A stretch of 64,000 bases of DNA from an uncultured Gemmatimonadales bacterium. GTDB taxonomy: Bacteria; Gemmatimonadota; Gemmatimonadetes; Gemmatimonadales; GWC2-71-9. How positions within the stretch are numbered: position 1 is the first letter of the stretch; each line of letters opens with the position of its first letter. The notes under the pieces are model-generated. The model ran no database searches, was not told the DNA's origin, and worked only from the letters and a program-made list of their open reading frames with translations. The stretch is taken from NCBI GenBank assembly GCA_963796335.1, contig CAWCLG010000006.1, positions 132,540-196,539 on the forward strand, written 5' to 3'. The translations under genes were made by a program, and so were the position numbers. This document shows, piece after piece, positions 35,245-51,088 of this stretch.

Positions 35245-36784
35245 GTGGAAGTCTTCGAGATCGTCATCGCCTTGCTGCTGATCGGCGCCGCGCTGGCCGC
35301 CGGCGCCCGTCGCATAGGCGCGCCCTATCCCGCGCTGCTCGCCCTCGCCGGCGTCGGGCTCGCGCTGATGCCGGGCACGCCGGCCGTGAGTCTCGATCCC
35401 GAGCTGGCGCTCGCGCTGTTCGTGGCGCCGGTGCTGCTCGACGCGGCATTCGACGCGTCGCCCCGCGACCTGCGGGAGCACTGGCGCGCCGGTCGCGAGT
35501 CTCGCGCTGGCCACCGTCGTCCTCACGGTCGCCGCGGTCGCGTTGACGGTCCGCTGGCTGGTGCCCGACATGCCGTGGGCCGCCGCGATCGCCCTCGGTG
35601 CGATCGTGGCGCCGCCCGACGCGGCGGCCGCCACCGCCGTGCTCCGCCAGCTGCGCCCCCCGCACCGCCTGATGGTGATCCTCGAAGGCGAAAGCCTGTT
35701 CAACGACGCCAGCGCGCTGCTGATCTACCGGCTCGCCGTCGGCGCGGCGGCCGCGGGCGCGCTCTCCGCCGGCGAGATCGTCCCGCTGCTGCTGCTGGTC
35801 ACCGCGGGCAGTATCGTCCTCGGCATTGTGCTCGCCCGGCTCACCGGATTGATCATCCCGCGCATCCAGGACGTCGCCACCTCGGTCATCGTGCAGTTCG
35901 TCGGGACCTTCGCGGTGTGGATCGGCGCGGAGGCGTTGCACCTCTCCGGCATCATCACGATGGTGGTCTATGCGATGTCCGTCGCGCGGCGGGCGGGCGA
36001 GAGCATCCCGGCCCGAATCCGGATCCCGTCGTACGCCGTGTGGGAGGTCGCGGTCTTCCTGCTCAACTCGCTGGCGTTCATCCTGGTCGGCCTCCAGCTC
36101 AAGCCGATCGTGGGCACGCTGGACCGCAGCGAGCTGGTGAACTACGCGGTCATCGCGATGGCGGTGTGCGCCGCCGTCATCCTGGCGCGCATCGCCTGGG
36201 CCGCGGGCGCGCACCTGCTCCGCGGCCCGCATACCTCCGAGGGGCGCCGCCACGCGGTCGTCGTGGCCTGGTGCGGGATGCGGGGGACCGTCACACTCGC
36301 CGCCGCGCTGGCCCTGCCCGCGCGCTTTCCTCATCGCGACCTGATTCTGTTCACCGCGTTCCTCGTGGTGCTCGGCACGCTGGTGGTGCAGGGCCTGACT
36401 CTGAAGCCGTTGTTGAGCCTGCTCCGGCTCGAGCCGGACGACGAAGTCGAGCGCGAAGTGCGGCTGGCGCGGCTGGAGACCCTTCGGGCCGGCGCCGCGG
36501 CGCTGGAGGGCGCGGACTCGACCGGCGAGGCGGCCGATCTGGTGCGGCAGAAGTACCGGGTCCGGCTGCGGCGGGCCGAAGCCAGGGTGGACAGCGGGGC
36601 CTCGGGACACGCGGGCCAGGAGGAGCGGGGTTACGCGGACGCCGCGCGGGCGGCGATGGCGGCGGAGCGCCGGCGGCTCTCGGCGCTCCGCAGCGAGGGG
36701 ACGATCGGAGACGACGCCTATCACCGGGTGGAGGAGGAGCTGGACCGGGCGGAGCTGAGCGCGGAAGCGATGGATCCGGAGTGA
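35245..36784 (+). pseudogene. Na+/H+ antiporter (CPA1/NhaP family); one frame break
   Basis: TM1-2 (VEVFEIVIALLLIGAA...FDASPRDLREHWR) are in frame 1. The rest (PVASLALATVVL...APPDAAAATAVL...ESLFNDASAL...) is in frame 2, with the break at ~35484-35492. Confidence 0.75.
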
Positions 36785-36900
36785 TCGAGGAAGCGGATTT
36801 GATGATGAATTGATGGTCCTTTGTACACTTCCCTAACGCGCAGGCGCGCGTATATTCTCGCGAAATCCCCCTAGCATAGCACAGTTCCAGCACGGGACTC

Positions 36901-37824
36901 ATGCCTCAGCAGCCAAGGCTGTTGGTCGGTTCCTCTCCGTCGATGGGCAGGGCGCTGGAACAGTGCGCCCGATTCGCACGGGGCCGGAATCCGGTCGTCC
37001 TCATCGGCGCCCCCGGCACCGGCAAGACGCTGCTCGCCGAGCACATCCACCTGCTCTCCGGGCGGACCGGGGAGTTCGTGAAGCTGTCGGCGTCGCACAT
37101 CCCGCCCAACCTGGAGCTGGCCCAACTCGGCGGGCACACGAGGGGTGCCTACACCGGGGCGGACCGCGATCAGCCCGGATTGCTGGAGACGTCCCATCGC
37201 GGAACGTTCTTTCTCGACGAGCTGGGCAACGCGTCGCCGATGGTGCAGGAGATCCTCCTCCAGGTGATCGAGGAGGGCACCATCCGACGGGTTCGGGAGA
37301 TCCGACCCCGGCCCCTCGACGTCCGCTTCGTCTTCGCCACCAATGCTCCGTTGCAGGCGCTGGTGGAGAAGGGCCAGTTCCGGCGGGATCTCTACGACCG
37401 TCTGGGTTTCTGCAAGATCGCGGTGCCGTCGCTGGCGGATCGGCGCGAGGACATCGAAGCCCTGCTGCGGTCGATGCTCCAACGCGAGGCCGAGGTCGCG
37501 GGGCTGGCCGAGCCGCCACGACTCGAATCCCGGCTGGTGGACTGCCTCATCGCGGCGCCCTGGAAGGGGAACGTCCGGGAGCTGGAGAACCTGTGCAAGT
37601 ACCTGGTCATTTTCGGGGATCTCGGTCGCCCGCTCGACATCGGGGACCTCCCCTACGACTTCGCCGCCTCGCTGGGCGCCATCCTGCGCCACCAGCACGA
37701 AACCCCCACGCTGGCCCACCGCGCTCGGGAAGCACTCGCCGCGACGGGCGGTGACAAGTCGGCCGCGGCGAGAATCCTCGGCATCAGCCGCACGCACATT
37801 TATCGGCTGCTCAAGCCGGCGTGA
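36901..37824 (+). CDS. receiver-less sigma54 enhancer-binding protein (AAA+ plus Fis-type HTH), bEBP-1
   Basis: Walker A GAPGTGKT, GAYTGA variant of the GAFTGA loop, Walker B FFLDELG, RELEN, and the C-terminal HTH AARILGISRTHIYRLL. No N-terminal sensory domain; 307 aa. Confidence 0.8.
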   Translation: MPQQPRLLVGSSPSMGRALEQCARFARGRNPVVLIGAPGTGKTLLAEHIHLLSGRTGEFVKLSASHIPPNLELAQLGGHTRGAYTGADRDQPGLLETSHRGTFFLDELGNASPMVQEILLQVIEEGTIRRVREIRPRPLDVRFVFATNAPLQALVEKGQFRRDLYDRLGFCKIAVPSLADRREDIEALLRSMLQREAEVAGLAEPPRLESRLVDCLIAAPWKGNVRELENLCKYLVIFGDLGRPLDIGDLPYDFAASLGAILRHQHETPTLAHRAREALAATGGDKSAAARILGISRTHIYRLLKPA

Positions 37825-37826
37825 TA

Positions 37827-37898
37827 GGCAGGCGGGCAGGCGGACAGGCGGGCGGGCGGTCAGGCGGACAGGCGGGCGGGCGGGCGGTCAGGCGGGCA
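37827..37898. repeat. degenerate octamer array (GNCNGGCG x ~9), complementary to the downstream CTGTCCGC array
   Basis: ggcaggcg ggcaggcg gacaggcg ggcgggcg gtcaggcg gacaggcg ggcgggcg ..., starting 3 nt after the bEBP-1 stop. Confidence 0.8.
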
Positions 37899-37912
37899 GA
37901 CGCGAGGCATAC

Positions 37913-37999
37913 GTGTCATCCCGAGCGCAGCGAGGGATCTTGCCGGGCGGAGTTCGAAGTCAGCCAGACAAGATCCCTCGCTGGCGCTCGGGATGACAC
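37913..37999. repeat. long hairpin (about 30 bp arms) of the GTCAYCCYGAGCG family
   Basis: GTGTCATCCCGAGCGCAGCGAGGGATCTTG...CAAGATCCCTCGCTGGCGCTCGGGATGACAC, with a one-base bulge. Confidence 0.8.
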
Positions 38000-38005
38000 T
38001 CGTTA

Positions 38006-38160
38006 CTGTCCGCCTGTCCGCCTGTCCGCCTGTCCGCCTGTCCGCCTGTCCGCCTGTCCGCCTGTCCGCCTGTCCGCCTGTCCGCCTGTCCGCCTGTCCG
38101 CCTGTCCGCCTGTCCGCCTGTCCGCCTGTCCGCCTGCCCGCCTGCCCGCCCGCCCGTCTG
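38006..38160. repeat. octamer tandem repeat: CTGTCCGC x16 perfect, then about 4 degenerate copies
   Basis: Counted unit by unit: 38006-38133 is 16 identical copies. 38134-38149 is two CTGCCCGC copies, followed by decayed copies. Confidence 0.95.
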
Positions 38161-38162
38161 CC

Positions 38163-38208
38163 GTAACCTGTCCGCCGTGACGTTACACCGACCGCTGTAA
38201 CATGTTAC
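38163..38208. promoter_or_regulatory. candidate upstream activator sequence: four GTAAC/GTTAC half-sites including the perfect palindrome GTAACATGTTAC
   Basis: GTAAC at 38163, GTTAC at 38182, GTAACATGTTAC at 38197-38208. Centred about 70-110 bp upstream of the -24/-12 candidate. Confidence 0.4.
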
Positions 38209-38274
38209 GCGGCCGCTCTCCGCGGTCCCTCGCCCAAACTCCATCCATTCATTCACTTGCCTCCAGCGACACAA

Positions 38275-38291
38275 CCGGCACGTCGTCTGCC
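38275..38291 (+). promoter_or_regulatory. candidate sigma54 (-24/-12) promoter for the gsp operon
   Basis: ccGGCACGtcgtCTGCc has GG-N10-GC spacing and matches 9 of 11 consensus positions of TGGCACG-N4-TTGC. The GC lies 36 nt upstream of the gspE ATG. Confidence 0.5.
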
Positions 38292-38325
38292 TTGCGAAGA
38301 GCCGACCTCACCAGCCGGTGCCTCC

Positions 38326-39816
38326 ATGACTGCTGCGCTCGCAACCAAGCTTCCGATCCCCGAGTCCTTCGCGGCGGAGTACCTCGAGTACTACCGCATG
38401 CTTCCCCTCGAGCTGGCGGACGATCGCATCCGGGTCGCCATCTCCGGCGACCCTAACGCGGAGGCGATCGACGACCTGCGCGACTCCTACGGGGTGTCCG
38501 TGGAGCTGGTGCAGGTGCCGGAGGAAGAGCTGCTCGACGCGATCAGGCGAACGTTCGCGGCGTCGGAGTCGGTGGTCGAGCTGGTGCGCGACCTCAGCGG
38601 CGACACCGCACTGGCAGGCCAGGGTGGCGACGACTCCCTCGCCGACGTGCGGGATCTCGCGAGCCAGCCTCCGGTGATCCGTTTCGTCAACCTGCTCATT
38701 CGCGAGGCCCACGACGCCGGCGCGAGCGACATCCACCTGGAGGCGACCAGAGACGGCCTCCGGATCCGGCTTCGGATCGACGGCGTGCTCACCGAGCTGC
38801 CCAGTCCGCCGAAAGGCCTTCAGGCCGCGGTCGTCTCGCGGATCAAGCTGCTGGCCGAGCTGGACATCTCGGAGCGGCGCCAGCCGCAGGACGGGCGGAT
38901 CCGGGTGCGGCTCGAGTCGCGCGAGCTCGATCTCCGGGTCTCCACCGTGCCGACGCTGCACGGGGAATCGGTGGTGCTTCGGCTCCTCGACCGCGGCGGC
39001 CGGCCGGTGTGCCTGGAGGAGCTCGGCCTGCCTCCGGAGATCCTGGGGTCGTTCGAGCGGCTGGCGCGCAAGCCGCACGGCATTCTGCTCTCCACCGGCC
39101 CGACCGGCTCCGGCAAGACGACGACGCTGTACGCGGCGCTGGGCCTCCGCCACCCGACCGAAGAGAAGGTCATCACGGTCGAGGACCCGGTGGAGTATCA
39201 CCTGCCCGATGTCACCCAGGTCCCGGTGCACCAGAAGGCCGGCGTGACCTTCGCCGCCGCTCTCCGAAGCATCCTGCGCCAGGACCCCGACGTGCTGATG
39301 GTCGGGGAGATGCGCGACCGGGAGACCGCCGGCATCGCGGTTCAGGCCGCCATGACCGGCCATCTGGTCTTCTCCACCCTGCACACCAACGACGCCGCCG
39401 GAGCCCTCACCCGCCTCGCCGATCTCGGCATCGAGCCCTACATGGTGGCGGCGACGCTCGAAGGCGTGCTGGCCCAGCGGCTGGTGCGCCGGACATGTCC
39501 CGACTGCCGGGAGACCTACCGTCCCGATCCCGGCGTGGTGGCGCTCCTGGCGCAGCGGCCGGTCGGCTCCATCCCGCTGGAACGGGGGAAGGGATGTGCG
39601 GCCTGCCGGCACACCGGTTTCCGGGGCCGCATCGGAATCTTCGAGCTGTTGATCATGACCGACGAGCTGCGGCGCGATCTGGCGACCGGGATGGACATCA
39701 CCTCGGTGCGGCGGCACGTGCGCGACGCGGGCGTGGCGAGTCTCCGGGACGACGCCTGGGCCAAGGTCCAGGCCGGGGTCACTACCGTGGAGGAGGTGCT
39801 TCGTGTGGTCGAATGA
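38326..39816 (+). CDS. gspE: type II secretion ATPase GspE
   Basis: T2SSE N-terminal domain, Walker A GPTGSGKTTT, Asp/His boxes, and the tetracysteine CPDC...CAAC motif. Confidence 0.9.
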   Translation: MTAALATKLPIPESFAAEYLEYYRMLPLELADDRIRVAISGDPNAEAIDDLRDSYGVSVELVQVPEEELLDAIRRTFAASESVVELVRDLSGDTALAGQGGDDSLADVRDLASQPPVIRFVNLLIREAHDAGASDIHLEATRDGLRIRLRIDGVLTELPSPPKGLQAAVVSRIKLLAELDISERRQPQDGRIRVRLESRELDLRVSTVPTLHGESVVLRLLDRGGRPVCLEELGLPPEILGSFERLARKPHGILLSTGPTGSGKTTTLYAALGLRHPTEEKVITVEDPVEYHLPDVTQVPVHQKAGVTFAAALRSILRQDPDVLMVGEMRDRETAGIAVQAAMTGHLVFSTLHTNDAAGALTRLADLGIEPYMVAATLEGVLAQRLVRRTCPDCRETYRPDPGVVALLAQRPVGSIPLERGKGCAACRHTGFRGRIGIFELLIMTDELRRDLATGMDITSVRRHVRDAGVASLRDDAWAKVQAGVTTVEEVLRVVE

Positions 39817-40255
39817 GGCGGGGCAGCGGGGCGGATTTACCTTGATCGAAATCCTGGTCGTCATCACGGTGATCGCGATCCTGGCCTCCCTGGTGACGCC
39901 CATGATCTTCCGGAACGTGGGCGACGCCAAGGTCTCGGCTGCACGCGCCCAGGTGGAGATCTTCGGGCTGGCGCTCGACGCCTACCGGCTCGACAACGAC
40001 TACTACCCCTCGACCGCGCAGGGACTCGACGCGCTGCGGACGCTCCCGGGCGGCCTGCCCGCCGCGCGCAACTGGCGCGGTCCCTACCTCAGGAAGGCGG
40101 TTCCGCTCGATCCATTCGGGCGACCCTACCTCTATAGGAGTCCGGGCGAGCGCAACCCGGGGTCCTACGATCTGCTGAGCCTGGGGCGGGATGGGACGCC
40201 GGGCGGCAGCGGTGAAGACGCCGACATCACGTCCTGGGGTGAGGACCGCAAGTGA
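39803..40255 (+). CDS. gspG: major pseudopilin GspG
   Basis: Prepilin leader MWSNEAGQRG|GFTLIEILVVITVIAILASL with Glu+5, and GspG-type body (WRGPYL...DPFGRPYLYRSPG...DLLSLGRDG). Confidence 0.9.
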   Translation: MWSNEAGQRGGFTLIEILVVITVIAILASLVTPMIFRNVGDAKVSAARAQVEIFGLALDAYRLDNDYYPSTAQGLDALRTLPGGLPAARNWRGPYLRKAVPLDPFGRPYLYRSPGERNPGSYDLLSLGRDGTPGGSGEDADITSWGEDRK

Positions 40256-41446
40256 CCGGCCTCTATCGGTATCGCGCCGCCCGGGCGGACGGCGGCCTGG
40301 TGCGCGGCGAAGTGGAGGCCGCGACCAGTGCCCAGGCCGGCTCGCTGCTGGAGGAGCGGGGACTGTTTCCGCTCGCCGTCCAGCCGGTCTCGCGAGCGGA
40401 CCCCGCTCGGCGGAGCGCGCCCCGAGCCGAGCTCGCCGTGGTGTTCCGGAGCCTGGCCATGCTGACAGGGGCCGGCGTGCCTCTCGAGCGGGCGCTGAGC
40501 AGCAGCGAGTCGTTGGCCAAGGGTCCGCTGCGGTCCTGCCTCGCCGCCGGCCGCGTCGAGCTGCGAGCCGGGAAGAGTCTGGCTGACGCCCTCGACGGCG
40601 CGGGCGGAGTGATTCCGCGTGTCGCGCTCGGCGTGCTGCGGGCCGGTGAGCGCGCCGGACGGCTGGTGCCGGCACTGGAGCAGGTCGCCGTTCAGCTCGA
40701 GCGGGAAGCGGATCTGGCCGGCACCATCCGGCAGTCGATGGCCTATCCCGCGCTGCTGGCGACGACGGGAGTTGGCGTCGATGCTGGTCATCGGCGGTGT
40801 CGTGGTCCCCCGCTTCGCCGCGCTGCTCGCCGATCTGGGCCAGGATCTGCCTCCCGCCACCCGGCTGCTGCTCGCCGTCTCCGCCTTCGTCGGCCGCTAC
40901 TGGAGCGCGATCCTCGCCGCGGTCTGCCTGGTCCTATGGCTGGTGCTGACCTGGGCGCGGACGCCGGCGGGCCGGCTGAGTCTGCACGAATGGCTCCTCC
41001 GCTTGCCCGTGCTCGGTCCGATGCGCCACGGCCTCGCCACCGCGCGAGCCACCAGCGCGCTGGGCGGCGCGCTCGCGGCCGGGATGCCCATGCTGCCGGC
41101 GCTCGACGTCTCCGCCGGCGCCACCGGGGACGACGCGGTGACGCTGCGGCTGGCCGCGGCGCGGGAGCGGGTGACGAGAGGCGAGAGCCTGAGCCACGCC
41201 CTGAGTCGCGAGCGCGCCCTGACTCCCGCCGGACTCCAGTTGATCGAAGTCGGAGAGCAGAGCGCGCAGCTCGCCCTGATGGCGGGCCGTGCCTCGGACC
41301 TGTCGGGCCGGGACGCTGAGCGCCGGCTGCGGGCCCTCGCGAGCCTGTTGGAGCCGGCGCTGGTGGTCGCGCTCGGCGGGATGGTGGCCTTCACGGCCCT
41401 GGCGCTGCTCCAGGCGCTCTACGGCATCCGCCCAGGTGGCATGTGA
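40252..41446 (+). pseudogene. gspF: inner-membrane platform protein GspF; one frame break
   Basis: The first GspF repeat is in frame 1 up to ..MAYPALLATTGV. The continuation ASMLVIGGVVVPRFAALLADLGQDLPPAT... and the second repeat are in frame 2 (break ~40770-40782). GTG 40252 overlaps the gspG stop. Confidence 0.8.
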
Positions 41447-44420: not shown

Positions 44421-44983
44421 CGTCGCGCGACCGGCGTGCCGTCGTCTGGGGACTCGCGGTCGTGGCGCTCGCGGTGGTCTCGCTCCGGGTCGTGCCCTGG
44501 CTCGCCGGCCAGATCGAACGGAATCGTGAAGAGGCGATCTCCGACGTCGGCCGGCTGGCGAGAATGCGGGAGGAGATTGCCGGCGCGAAGGCGCTGGAGG
44601 ATTCCGCGGTCGCGGTGCGCGCCCGGATGGAGCTGCTCGCCGGAAGACTGCTCGTCGGGGACCGCGAGGCGGAGGCTCAGGCCGACCTGCGGTCGCGGGT
44701 CGAGGCCGCGATCTCCCGGAATCGGGTCCGGCTCCTGCGCATGGAGAGTCTGCCCGACTCGGCGGCCGCCGGATCGCTTCGAAGGGCCTCGGTCGGCGTC
44801 TCGATTCAGAGTGACAACAGCGGACTGCTGCGCTTCCTGGCGGCGCTGGCCGGCGATTCGGCGGCGGTCGTCGCCCGGCAGGCCAGCGTCATCGCGGCGA
44901 GCCCGCGGGCCGCGGCCGGACCGGAAGTCCTCGACGCCGAGGTGGTGGTGGGCGGCTGGTTCGCCGGGGGGAACGCGCCGTGA
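44417..44983 (+). CDS. GspM/PilO-like bitopic assembly protein
   Basis: GTG 44417 overlaps the upstream stop (GTGA). One N-terminal TM helix followed by a coiled-coil and ferredoxin-like periplasmic part. Confidence 0.55.
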   Translation: MTSRDRRAVVWGLAVVALAVVSLRVVPWLAGQIERNREEAISDVGRLARMREEIAGAKALEDSAVAVRARMELLAGRLLVGDREAEAQADLRSRVEAAISRNRVRLLRMESLPDSAAAGSLRRASVGVSIQSDNSGLLRFLAALAGDSAAVVARQASVIAASPRAAAGPEVLDAEVVVGGWFAGGNAP

Positions 44984-45441
44984 GGGCCGTCCTGCTGGTC
45001 GCGATCGCGGCGCCGCTGGCTGTGTCGGCCGTACTCCTGGCGGCACCCGTGATTCCCGATCCGGTGCTGCCGCCGCGTCGCGCCCTGCCTGCTCCTTCGA
45101 GACTTCCGGCCGAACCGACCGCCACGTCGCTGGAGCGCGGGCTCGCCCGGCCGCTGTTCCGTCGGACCCGCAAGCCGGCTCGACTCGCGTTCGATCCCGA
45201 CCGGGCGGCTGGGGAGGTCGCGATGGAGCCTTCGGCCCCGCGGCCCCAGCTCTCGCTGTCGGGAATCGTCTGGAGTCCCCGGCCGATCGCCGTGCTGGAG
45301 GGGCTGCCCAATATCACGGGCTCGACCGTGATGCGGACCGGGGATCGCACCGCGGGCGTGTGGGTGAAGCGGATCGGACGGGAGAGCGTCACGCTGGAAG
45401 GGTTCGACACCACCTGGGTGCTGAAGCTGAGGAATCCATGA
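44980..45441 (+). CDS. T2SS-associated bitopic protein (GspC/GspN/PilP position)
   Basis: GTGA overlap with the upstream stop. N-terminal TM helix, Pro-rich linker, and a small C-terminal beta domain (GVWVKRIGRESVTLEGFDTTWVLKL). Confidence 0.5.
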   Translation: MRAVLLVAIAAPLAVSAVLLAAPVIPDPVLPPRRALPAPSRLPAEPTATSLERGLARPLFRRTRKPARLAFDPDRAAGEVAMEPSAPRPQLSLSGIVWSPRPIAVLEGLPNITGSTVMRTGDRTAGVWVKRIGRESVTLEGFDTTWVLKLRNP

Positions 45442-46889
45442 ACCAGTACGGGAAGCTCGCGCTCGCGACCTGGCTGCTGGCCGGTCTGGCCCAGACCCCG
45501 GCGCGGGCCCAGGCGCCGGTGACGACCAATGGGGACAGCGTCCGGGTCCGATTCCTCGATACCGACCTCCGGGCGGTGATCCAGGCCGTCGGGAGTCACC
45601 TGCCCAAGCCGGTGATCGCGGGCGGGGTGCCCGAGGTCAAGGTCTCGCTGGAGACGCCGGAGCCGGTCAACCGCGAGACGCTCGCGACCCTGCTGGCGGG
45701 GCTGGTGAGGACCCACGGCCTCGAGTTCACCGAGGACTCCAGCTTCTTCCGCATCGGTCCCCCGAGTCCCGCCGCTGCTCCGGCGGCCGCGCAGCCGGCG
45801 GGCGGCGCCCAGGCGGCGAACGTGCGGCTCTTCGTGATCCGGCTCCGCCACGCACGCGCGTCGGACGTGGCCGCGACGGTGAACCTGCTGTTCGGCCGGG
45901 GAGGGGAGTTCACCGGGGCGACGGGGCTCTCGGGCGGTACGCTGGGGGACGAGCTGGCCCGGCCGGACATGCTGCCAGGCGGAGCGGTGCCGCAGCCGCC
46001 CGACTCGGGGAAGCCGCCCGGCGCCAACCTCACCGGCCCGGTCGCGATCGTGCCCGACCAGCTCACCAACTCGCTCCTGGTCCGCGCGGCCGAGGCCGAC
46101 TTCGCGGTGCTGCGCGAGGCGGTGACCCAGCTCGACATCCGTCCGCTCCAGGTGCTGATCGAGGTGCTGATCGTCGAGGCGAGGCACGACCGCCGGTTCT
46201 CCCTCGGCGCCGACCTGCTGGTGCCGCCGCAGGACATCGGCGACGGCACGATCGGGGGAACGATCACCGGCGGCGGGCTGGGCGACCTGGTGATCCGGCT
46301 GATGAACCTGGGCAAGGGCGACATTGACGCGGTGCTGCGGACGGCGCAATCGAAGGGCGACGTGGAGATCGTCTCGCGGCCGGTGCTGCTGGCGTCGAAC
46401 AACACCGAGGCCCGGTTCCTAGTGGGCTCGCAGCGGCCGTTCATCTCGGTGAGCCGCTCCCTCCCGACCGACAGTCCCTCGCGGGACCAGGTGGTGCAGT
46501 ATCTCGACGTGGGGACCAAGCTCAGGGTGCTGCCGACGATCAACCAGGACGGCTACGTCTCGCTGGTGGTGCAGCAGGAGATCAATGCCGCGACGGGAGA
46601 GACCCAGTTCGACGCGCCGGTGATCTCCACCCGGGAGGCATCGACCCAGGTGCTGGTGCGCGACGGACAGACGATCGTGATCGGCGGCTTGCGCGACCTG
46701 CAGCGGGACCGGAGCCAGTCGGGGGTGCCGGTGCTGTCGGGCATTCCGATCGTCGGCGGGCTGTTCGGGACCACCCGGCGGAGCAGCACGGCGACTGAGC
46801 TCTATCTGTTTCTGACGCCGCGGATCCTTCGCACCGACGAGGACGCCGCGAATGTGACCTCACCCCGGCTTCCGGATATCAAGCAATGA
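45438..46889 (+). CDS. gspD: secretin GspD
   Basis: ATGA overlap with the upstream stop. Signal peptide, N0/N1-like domains, and a secretin core (VLIEVLIVEA...VPVLSGIPIVGGLFG...ELYLFLTPRIL). Confidence 0.88.
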   Translation: MNQYGKLALATWLLAGLAQTPARAQAPVTTNGDSVRVRFLDTDLRAVIQAVGSHLPKPVIAGGVPEVKVSLETPEPVNRETLATLLAGLVRTHGLEFTEDSSFFRIGPPSPAAAPAAAQPAGGAQAANVRLFVIRLRHARASDVAATVNLLFGRGGEFTGATGLSGGTLGDELARPDMLPGGAVPQPPDSGKPPGANLTGPVAIVPDQLTNSLLVRAAEADFAVLREAVTQLDIRPLQVLIEVLIVEARHDRRFSLGADLLVPPQDIGDGTIGGTITGGGLGDLVIRLMNLGKGDIDAVLRTAQSKGDVEIVSRPVLLASNNTEARFLVGSQRPFISVSRSLPTDSPSRDQVVQYLDVGTKLRVLPTINQDGYVSLVVQQEINAATGETQFDAPVISTREASTQVLVRDGQTIVIGGLRDLQRDRSQSGVPVLSGIPIVGGLFGTTRRSSTATELYLFLTPRILRTDEDAANVTSPRLPDIKQ

Positions 46890-47845
46890 GCGCCGTCACC
46901 GAGGTACGCGCCACGGAAGTGATCGCGATTCCCCTGCTCATCGGATGCTCTCCCTCGATGCAGCTGGCCCGCAGCCGGGTGGAGCGGTTCGCCCGCAGCC
47001 GCCTTCCGATCCTGCTGGTGGGGCCGACCGGCACCGGGAAGGATCTGGTCGCCCGGCACCTGCACTGGGCCAGCGGCAGGGCGGGTGCGATGGTGGACGT
47101 GAACTGCGGCGCCCTCCCGCGCGACATGGTCGAGAGCCTGCTGTTTGGCCACCGGCGGGGAGCTTTCACCGGGGCCATCGAGAGCACCTTGGGGATGATC
47201 GCTCGGGCGGACCGGGGCACGCTTTTCCTGGACGAGTTGTCGAGCCTCCCGGTCGAAGGCCAGGCCAAGCTGCTGCGCGTGTTGGAGACGGGTGAGGTCT
47301 TGCCGCTGGGCGCGTCGACCAAGCAGGTGATCGACTTCCGGCTGGTCGCCGCCGCGCACGAGGACATCGCGGATCGCGTGGGCTCGGGGCTGTTCCGCCG
47401 GGATCTCTTTCACCGGGTGGCAGCGCTGCGGATCGACCTGCCGCCACTGGCCTCACGGCGAGAGGACATTGCCCTGCTCGCCCAGCACTTCGCATCGGCC
47501 CACGGGCGGATGATCGGGGAGGAGGGCATGGTGGTGCTGCGACAGGCGCACTGGCCCGGAAACGTACGCGAGCTGCGGGCGGTGGTGGATCGGGCGGTGC
47601 TGCTCTCCGACGCGCCCGTCCTCGACGCGCAGGTCCTGCTCGACGGCAGGGACCTCGGCCTCGCCGACGCGCTGCAGCGGGAGCCCGCGCGCGAGCTGCT
47701 GGAGCTGTGCCGGGTGCACGGGGGCCGCGCCGACACCATCGCCCAGGCACTGGGCGTCAGCCGGGCGACGCTATTCCGCCGACTCCGTGCGCTGGGGATC
47801 TCGCTGATGAGTCTCAGGGTCTCACGGAGTCTTGAGACTCGGTAA
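46886..47845 (+). CDS. receiver-less sigma54 enhancer-binding protein (AAA+ plus HTH), bEBP-2
   Basis: ATG 46886 overlaps the gspD stop (ATGA). Walker A GPTGTGKD, GAFTGA, LFLDEL, NVRELR, and the HTH IAQALGVSRATLFRRL; 319 aa with no sensory domain. Confidence 0.82.
   Translation: MSAVTEVRATEVIAIPLLIGCSPSMQLARSRVERFARSRLPILLVGPTGTGKDLVARHLHWASGRAGAMVDVNCGALPRDMVESLLFGHRRGAFTGAIESTLGMIARADRGTLFLDELSSLPVEGQAKLLRVLETGEVLPLGASTKQVIDFRLVAAAHEDIADRVGSGLFRRDLFHRVAALRIDLPPLASRREDIALLAQHFASAHGRMIGEEGMVVLRQAHWPGNVRELRAVVDRAVLLSDAPVLDAQVLLDGRDLGLADALQREPARELLELCRVHGGRADTIAQALGVSRATLFRRLRALGISLMSLRVSRSLETR
47809..47840. repeat. R1: 32 bp triple-GTCTCA element (copy 1), inside the 3' end of bEBP-2
   Basis: gagtctcagggtctcacggagtcttgagactc. 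27 of 32 positions are identical to R2, with identical 8 and 10 nt spacing of the three GTCT motifs. Confidence 0.85.
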
Positions 47846-50871: not shown

Positions 50872-50967
50872 GTTGCTTCGTATCTTGTGAACAGTGGCAG
50901 GATCCGCAGTCCTAGGCGGCTCGCTCGGATCCCTTTCTCTTCATCTTCGTCCCTGCTTCAGAGTCTC
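50872..50967. repeat. X2: about 100 bp direct repeat, copy downstream of the HExxH gene, abutting R2
   Basis: See X1. Its 3' end runs into the triple-GTCTCA element. Confidence 0.6.
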
Positions 50968-50992
50968 AAAGTCTCACGTAGTCTCAAGACTC
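50961..50992. promoter_or_regulatory. R2: 32 bp triple-GTCTCA element (copy 2), candidate UAS for the rhs promoter
   Basis: gagtctcaaagtctcacgtagtctcaagactc ends in the palindrome AGTCTcaAGACT. Centred about 97 bp upstream of the -24 GG. Confidence 0.45.
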
Positions 50993-51071
50993 CATGAGAC
51001 GGTCGCACGATCCGGTCATCCTCCCCGCCTCCAAAAACTGTTGAAACCAATGACTTAGGTGCCCAGCCCTG

Positions 51072-51088
51072 GCGGCATGGTCACTGCT
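51072..51088 (+). promoter_or_regulatory. candidate sigma54 (-24/-12) promoter for rhs
   Basis: gcGGCATGgtcaCTGCt has GG-N10-GC spacing and the same CGGCAYG-N4-CTGC form as the gspE candidate. The GC lies 35 nt upstream of the GTG 51122 start proposed here. Confidence 0.45.

Follow-up and report, generated by a model that had tools for sequence, protein, structure and literature searches.

The 64-kb window analyzed here (i.e., the whole stretch of 64,000 nucleotides, from an uncultured Gemmatimonadales bacterium) carries a type II secretion system (T2SS) operon whose first gene, gspE, lies downstream of a gene for a sigma-54 activator of the bacterial enhancer-binding protein (bEBP) type, designated bEBP-1. 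The region between these two genes contains a -24/-12 promoter motif, a cluster of GTAAC/GTTAC half-sites ahead of it, and a long inserted palindrome (Table 1). After gspE, the gene order is gspG, gspF (40252 to 41446), pseudopilin genes, gspK, the gene for secretin D (44436 to 46889), and a second activator gene, bEBP-2. The genome to which the window belongs comprises 4.29 Mb in 7 contigs, has a G+C content of 69%, and is 83% complete.

The promoter motif had been pointed out in a preliminary description of this DNA, and rereading it on the window sequence bore out the particulars. The GG-N10-GC spacing in ccGGCACGtcgtCTGCc (38275 to 38291) is exact, 9 of the 11 specified positions of TGGCACG-N4-TTGC are matched, and the distance from the -12 C (38290) to the A of the gspE ATG (38326) is 36 nt.

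Table 1. Genes and sequence elements discussed in the text, with their positions in the window (L115 and L003 are two of the loci compared)
Feature	Position	Strand	Remarks
bEBP-1, 307-aa sigma-54 activator	36901-37824	+	Pfam Sigma54_activat (150.8 bits), AAA_lid_14, HTH_8
Inserted mega-palindrome, 334 nt	37827-38160		(GGCAGGCG)n degenerate units, ~85-nt hairpin, (CTGTCCGC)16-18
Distal candidate enhancer site GTAACCTGTCCG	38163-38174	+	GTAAC half-site kept 34-44 nt upstream of the 12-bp palindrome in four species
Middle half-sites GTGAC-GTTAC	38177-38186	+	GTTAC kept in same-genus L115, not in L003
Proximal candidate enhancer site ctGTAACATGTTAC	38195-38208	+	Holds the perfect 12-bp palindrome
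AT-rich spacer ccaaactccatccattcattcac	~38234-38256	+	Richest 20-mer 65% AT; possible bend
Predicted sigma-54 promoter CGGCACG-tcgt-CTGCC = CGGCACGtcgtCTGCC	38276-38291	+	GG (-25/-24) at 38277-38278; GC (-13/-12) at 38289-38290
Predicted transcription start and 24-nt leader	38302-38325	+	Start placed by promoter geometry, 12 nt past the -12 C
GGTG, Shine-Dalgarno-like element	38317-38320	+	Kept 5-6 nt ahead of the start codon in L115 and L003
gspE, first T2SS operon gene	38326-39816	+	T2SSE 434 bits; NCBIfam type_II_gspE 579.8 bits, below the 630 cut-off
bEBP-2, last operon gene	46886-47845	+	Start overlaps the secretin stop; GAFTGA; helix-turn-helix ...GVSRATLFRRL
Predicted sister sigma-54 promoter CGGCATG-gtca-CTGCT = CGGCATGgtcaCTGCT, before rhs	51073-51088	+	GTCTCA repeats at 50961-50999, 70-110 nt upstream

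Conservation of the promoter motif across gspE loci

Orthologous gspE loci of Gemmatimonadales were gathered from related genomes, a species-representative genome collection, and soil metagenomes. The set comprises 67 loci (GspE identity, 59 to 78%) with 58 unique 24-mers, and the position of the motif was measured in 63 of them. The nearest public relatives are metagenome-assembled genomes of Gemmatimonadales/Gemmatimonadaceae.

In the 67 loci, the best -24/-12 match upstream of gspE takes the form YGGCACG-N4-NTGCC. The GG, T-14, G-13, and C-12 are invariant (58/58 unique sequences), and the remaining positions of the -24 element are conserved to a high degree (C-23, 53/58; A-22, 55/58; C-21, 50/58; G-20, 45/58). 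Since the loci were anchored on their best match, the columns that the matrix rewards are enriched by construction; the flanks and the unrewarded positions escape that bias. The flanks are unconserved (0.24 bits per column, versus 1.08 in the motif), while positions that the matrix ignores or penalizes show a consistent pattern of their own (C at -11 in 42/58 and T at -10 in 31/58, with T at -15 in only 2/58). The motif also occupies a nearly fixed place, starting 45 to 56 nt ahead of the predicted start codon in 54 of the 63 loci. No such motif was found upstream of the T2SS paralogues L007 to L010, which are 52 to 54% identical.

As judged from these sequence comparisons, we regard the conservation among relatives as the decisive evidence for a promoter, and the gspE motif is very probably a real sigma-54 promoter of a functional class. 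The -12 element of this class, VTGCC(T), departs from the canonical form; the other predicted sigma-54 promoters of the genome mostly have T at -15.

Frequency of the sigma-54 core in the genome

The exact core GGCAYG-N5-TGC occurs 41 times in the genome, counting both strands. Twenty-two of these cores lie between genes, in the orientation of a predicted gene whose start is at most 300 nt away, and positions of this kind amount to 4.6%. Ten other spacings of the same two words gave 2 to 10 upstream co-oriented matches each; the enrichment is confined to the canonical spacing. These classes rest on crude in-house gene calls covering 78% of the genome; errors in the calls would dilute the enrichment rather than create it. 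On the core count taken by itself, a match in an upstream position is quite probably real. The longer form YGGCAYG-N4-CTGC has 8 occurrences in the genome, among them the gspE site and the site before rhs. Furthermore, the density of sites scoring at least 11 bits is about 8 to 10 times higher upstream of genes than within coding sequence.

Within coding sequence, there are 7 cores at the canonical spacing, compared with 32 to 43 at each of the three spacings that fall in the same codon phase (i.e., the sigma-54 core is approximately 5 to 6 times rarer there than the same words spaced otherwise). Such depletion points to selection against stray sites and stands in contrast to Escherichia coli, for which widespread intragenic binding of sigma-54 has been described (PMC4591121).

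Several observations weigh against a functional promoter of this kind, including the frame breaks and the small number of enhancer loci considered in later sections. With a generic sigma-54 matrix (approximate frequencies, after the compilation of Barrios et al. 1999), the gspE site scores 8.0 bits, and 1,913 sites in the genome reach 8 bits or more. A matrix retrained on the genome's own best upstream sites gave it 7.6 bits, with 2,716 sites equal or better. The window itself holds 2 core sites, and shuffled sequences are expected to hold 2.1, a count that we judged uninformative. In addition, the related loci compared above share ancestry and are not independent, and for this reason no formal p-value is attached to their conservation. 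The preliminary description had raised the question of whether a CGGCAYG-N4-CTGC-type motif is enriched upstream of genes and had named a matrix score no higher than the genome background as a refutation; the exact-core counts uphold the enrichment, and the score of the gspE site does not stand out, which, taken literally, is the refuting outcome. We do not take the matrix outcome as a refutation, because an additive log-odds score at 69% G+C gives little weight to the G and C residues that characterize the motif.

These scores and the window count are what would be expected if the -24/-12 match were a chance occurrence in GC-rich DNA, with gspE transcribed from an unrecognized sigma-70-type promoter or by read-through from bEBP-1. 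A scan of positions 36700 to 38600 revealed neither a sigma-70-like promoter nor an intrinsic terminator; the consensus scanned was of the E. coli type, and that of this phylum may differ from it. However, a chance match would not be expected to persist in 67 loci at a near-fixed position between unconserved flanks, nor would chance confine the core enrichment to the canonical spacing. As for read-through, a palindrome with a predicted RNA folding energy of -254.8 kcal/mol (z = -14.8) sits between bEBP-1 and gspE. We consider a chance match extremely improbable.

The GTAAC sites and the AT-rich spacer

The preliminary description had also listed four GTAAC/GTTAC half-sites, and these are present at 38163, 38182, 38197, and 38204, together with a GTGAC at 38177; the perfect 12-bp palindrome GTAACATGTTAC lies where it had been placed, at 38197 to 38208. 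GTAAC/GTTAC occurs at a frequency of 0.24 per kb genome-wide. The half-sites ahead of gspE form the sole non-tandem cluster of four within 50 nt, the other clusters consisting of tandem 9- to 10-mers, and no second copy of the 12-mer palindrome exists in the genome. The cluster is clearly non-random. Its half-sites lie 73 to 114 nt upstream of the GG, in keeping with the distance of about 80 to 150 nt expected of upstream activating sequences, and the centers of the two candidate sites (about -100 and about -134 relative to the predicted start at 38302) fall in the range usual for activator sites.

The sites are kept in relatives. The layout in the window is GTAAC-N14-GTTACACCG-N6-cTGTAACATGTTAC, and in L115, a locus of the same genus whose GspE is 78% identical, it is GTAAC-N14-GTTACACCG-N6-cTGTAACATGTgAC, with the intervening bases diverged. 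A 12-mer of the form GTAAC-(A/C)T-GT(T/G)AC is found in four species (our own, L115, L003, and L150), 77 to 107 nt upstream of the GG, and each of the four has a further GTAAC upstream of the 12-mer at the distance given in Table 1.

Between the half-sites and the promoter lies the most AT-rich stretch of the intergenic region, as had been described. The IHF-type bend that had been expected there found no support: the best match in the spacer to the E. coli IHF consensus WATCAANNNNTTR has 2 mismatches, and the site is unconserved. Among the spacers of 12 loci, a perfect match to this consensus occurs in 1, and no conserved site was found. The genome, at its 83% completeness, has a single HU/IHF-family gene, which reaches 90.7 and 85.1 bits with the IHF models and less, 61.8 and 51.9 bits, with the HU models, all below their cut-offs.

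Activators and their pairing with enhancer words

In bEBP-1, the Sigma54_activat domain spans residues 8 to 173 of 307 and HTH_8 spans residues 277 to 302; the protein has no sensory domain. It carries a GAYTGA loop and ends in a Fis-type helix-turn-helix (HTH; ...GISRTHIYRLL). GAYTGA and GAFTGA alternate among the bEBP-1 orthologues, and a tyrosine at F3 (i.e., GAYTGA) is recorded for the validated activator TouR (PMC3162934). Two sensor-less activators with intact GAYTGA/GAFTGA loops, bEBP-1 and bEBP-2, flank the T2SS operon.

The gene order bEBP-gspE-gspG is conserved among the loci, and no gene upstream of the bEBP gene is, which indicates that the module begins at the activator gene. A search of 401 genomes of the order recovered genes like bEBP-1 in only 11, so the module is accessory. 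Without a sensory domain in bEBP-1, control of its activity must come from its own expression or from some partner. No conserved partner or sensor gene was found upstream of the bEBP gene in the loci compared. The 116 nt directly upstream of bEBP-1 (36785 to 36900) are relatively AT rich, lack GTAAC sites, and show no recognizable promoter of either the sigma-70 or the sigma-54 type.

Across loci, the recognition helix of the adjacent activator varies together with the words found ahead of the promoter. Helices of the form SR[TQ][HT][IL][YW]R pair with GTAAC (our own locus, L115, L003, and L150), SRATL[YF]R pairs with GTCTCA (L034, and our own bEBP-2 and rhs), and HR[QT]DLYR pairs with TGTCCGGACA (L032 and L122). 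In L034, the activator helix is SRATLYR and the gspE enhancer is TGTCTCATGAGACA. In all, at least six unrelated classes of enhancer word accompany the same promoter in loci between L032 and L183 (GTAAC, GTCTCA, TGTCCGGACA, TGCACA, AACTTGTCA, and AACTGA/CAGTTCG). The pairing is drawn from about 10 loci, and one of these, L005 (SRKTIHK with GTAACC), fits it loosely. On the basis of this pairing, GTAAC would be the site of bEBP-1, and GTCTCA that of bEBP-2. Since GTCTCA repeats precede the predicted sister promoter of rhs in the window (Table 1), bEBP-2 likely activates the rhs promoter and not that of gspE.

The gspE promoter could also be real and its GTAAC sites be bound by another factor (i.e., bEBP-2 in a positive feedback loop, any of the 15 remaining bEBPs, or a repressor), with bEBP-1 acting elsewhere. 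The genome has 17 strong Sigma54_activat (bEBP) genes, two of which flank the operon. Moreover, adjacency is not obligatory, because three loci (L033, L040, and L044) have the promoter together with TGCACA repeats and no bEBP gene within 3 kb upstream. On the other hand, the recognition helix of bEBP-2 (SRATLFR) corresponds to that in L034, where the enhancer is of the GTCTCA type, and in the window GTCTCA precedes rhs and not gspE. In each of the four loci of the GTAAC type, a bEBP-1-type helix is encoded directly upstream, and the conserved part of the module starts, on its left, with the bEBP gene. Control of the GTAAC sites by another factor is therefore unlikely.

The geometry had been likened in the preliminary description to that of established bEBP-dependent promoters, and this likeness is supported by the presence of rpoN and bEBP genes, the conserved -24/-12 motif, and the kept GTAAC palindrome. 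We hold it probable, with some confidence, that the element is the sigma-54 promoter of the T2SS operon and that it is activated by bEBP-1 at the GTAAC sites.

A broader proposal can be made tentatively, and we put it at somewhat below an even chance. A clade of accessory Gemmatimonadales T2SSs may be gated by sigma-54 through a promoter that is fixed in sequence and position, while the sensor-less activator and its enhancer have co-diversified into at least six specificity classes. Two such pairs might act in series in the window, with bEBP-1 switching on the T2SS and bEBP-2 switching on the Rhs toxin. If true, this would amount to a collection of orthogonal bEBP/enhancer pairs of natural origin and to a cascade in which secretion precedes the toxin.

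Sigma-54 machinery, frame breaks, and the inserted palindrome

The absence of an rpoN gene had been named as grounds for abandoning the promoter, and the genome does carry one (Sigma54_DBD, 216 bits). The gene lies at C7:730170-731755 (L001:1495-3086, minus strand) and is read in two overlapping frames, the first with AID and the start of CBD and the second with the rest of CBD and DBD. In the acidic linker, a GACRCCGGG tandem repeat contains the G-run in which the one-base frame break falls. The gspF gene is likewise broken near 40776, next to a GGG run, and reads as two overlapping frames. If both breaks were real, decay of the system would be under way in this strain, and the gspE element could be a relic (i.e., an ancestral promoter and enhancer left in an inactive system). 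However, a break in the G-run of a short tandem repeat is the pattern of an assembly error and not of decay, and the rpoN break is probably such an error. Moreover, the promoter, the palindrome, and the bEBP loops are all intact, and the sigma-54 core still appears to be under selection, being depleted in coding sequence and enriched upstream of genes. A relic is highly unlikely, and we retain the interpretation of a working promoter activated by bEBP-1.

The spacer between bEBP-1 and gspE is 501 nt long, compared with 121 to 251 nt in relatives, and contains the mega-palindrome, which is absent from the orthologous spacers. An Rfam scan of 37700 to 38450 returned only sub-threshold matches, all of them on the hairpin. 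The hairpin family is dispersed over about 40 places in the genome (e.g., C6:1243860-1244120, C6:1303700-1303900, and C5:430160-430400). Around several copies, short tandem units form inverted arrays, and the unit changes from one copy to the next, CTGTCCGC here and GTTACGGCG elsewhere. As the insert lies upstream of the enhancer, it leaves the enhancer-promoter geometry unchanged. It lies outside the promoter, may serve as a terminator or insulator, and might halt read-through from bEBP-1.

Arrays of GTTAC-containing 9-mers border the hairpin at other places in the genome, which raised the idea that the GTAAC sites are decayed units of the inserted repeat. This idea was rejected, since L115, L003, and L150 lack the insert and yet keep the sites.

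Proposed mechanism and comparison with known systems

In the mechanism that we propose, RNA polymerase carrying sigma-54 would bind CGGCACG-N4-CTGCC (38276 to 38291) and form a closed complex. bEBP-1 would bind the GTAAC-NT-GTKAC palindrome (38197 to 38208) and the distal GTAAC sites (38163 to 38186), which are centered approximately 100 to 135 nt upstream of the predicted start. It would then oligomerize, loop to the promoter, and touch sigma-54 through its GAYTGA loop, and ATP hydrolysis would open the promoter. Transcription would run from about 38302 through gspE to the secretin gene and bEBP-2, and bEBP-2 would then probably activate the rhs toxin promoter from the GTCTCA repeats.

To our knowledge, promoters have yet to be described for Gemmatimonadota, a phylum widespread in soil. 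Accounts of a T2SS operon controlled directly by sigma-54 through a dedicated activator are scarce; in the literature on direct sigma-54 promoters of T2SSs, we found only a report on Plesiomonas shigelloides (PMC9743648). In that species, expression of T2SS-2, a second T2SS cluster, is under positive control by RpoN, as determined by RNA-seq and quantitative reverse transcription-PCR, and the system contributes to the killing of E. coli (PMC9743648). The two cases are alike in that an accessory T2SS is under sigma-54, the T2SS genes of the window being followed by a toxin gene, rhs, whose product has a signal peptide. They differ in that no promoter, enhancer, or dedicated bEBP was defined for Plesiomonas, where the effect is possibly indirect, while cis elements and an activator are defined here by sequence alone.

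Several known activators resemble bEBP-1 in part. PspF, which acts on pspA in E. coli, and HrpR/HrpS, which act on hrpL in Pseudomonas syringae, are group Ic bEBPs in the classification of Francke et al. 2011 (PMC3162934). Like these, bEBP-1 combines an AAA+ domain with a C-terminal HTH, has no sensory domain, and is encoded beside its presumed target, and the Hrp case also concerns a secretion system. The likeness to PspF is architectural only, since bEBP-1 scores 191.4 bits with TIGR02974 against a cut-off of 443.55 and is no orthologue. In contrast to the Hrp case, the target here is a type II and not a type III secretion operon, and the phylum is Gemmatimonadota. No PspA- or HrpV-like partner was found beside bEBP-1, either upstream in the loci compared or downstream, where the genes encode T2SS parts; a distant partner is possible.

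At glnAp2, NtrC acts from dyad sites for a Fis-type HTH approximately 100 to 140 nt upstream of the -24/-12 element, the two sites being about three helical turns apart. Dyad-symmetric sites at about this distance from a -24/-12 promoter are also present here. VasH of type VI secretion provides a second parallel, with a bEBP gene embedded in a secretion gene cluster. NtrC and VasH differ from bEBP-1 in carrying receiver or other N-terminal regulatory domains. The DNA elements differ as well, the half-site GTAAC being unrelated to theirs and the -12 element being VTGCC(T) and not TTGCW.

The system is therefore new in its target and its phylum, while its mechanism would be that of a textbook enhancer-dependent promoter; because the gspE element would work like textbook sigma-54 promoters, the gain is one of scope and not of principle. 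It yields a defined promoter, a 12-bp enhancer candidate, and a 307-aa activator, all of which can be tested in E. coli. One constant promoter accompanied by many types of enhancer also offers material for studying how the specificity of activators for DNA evolves.

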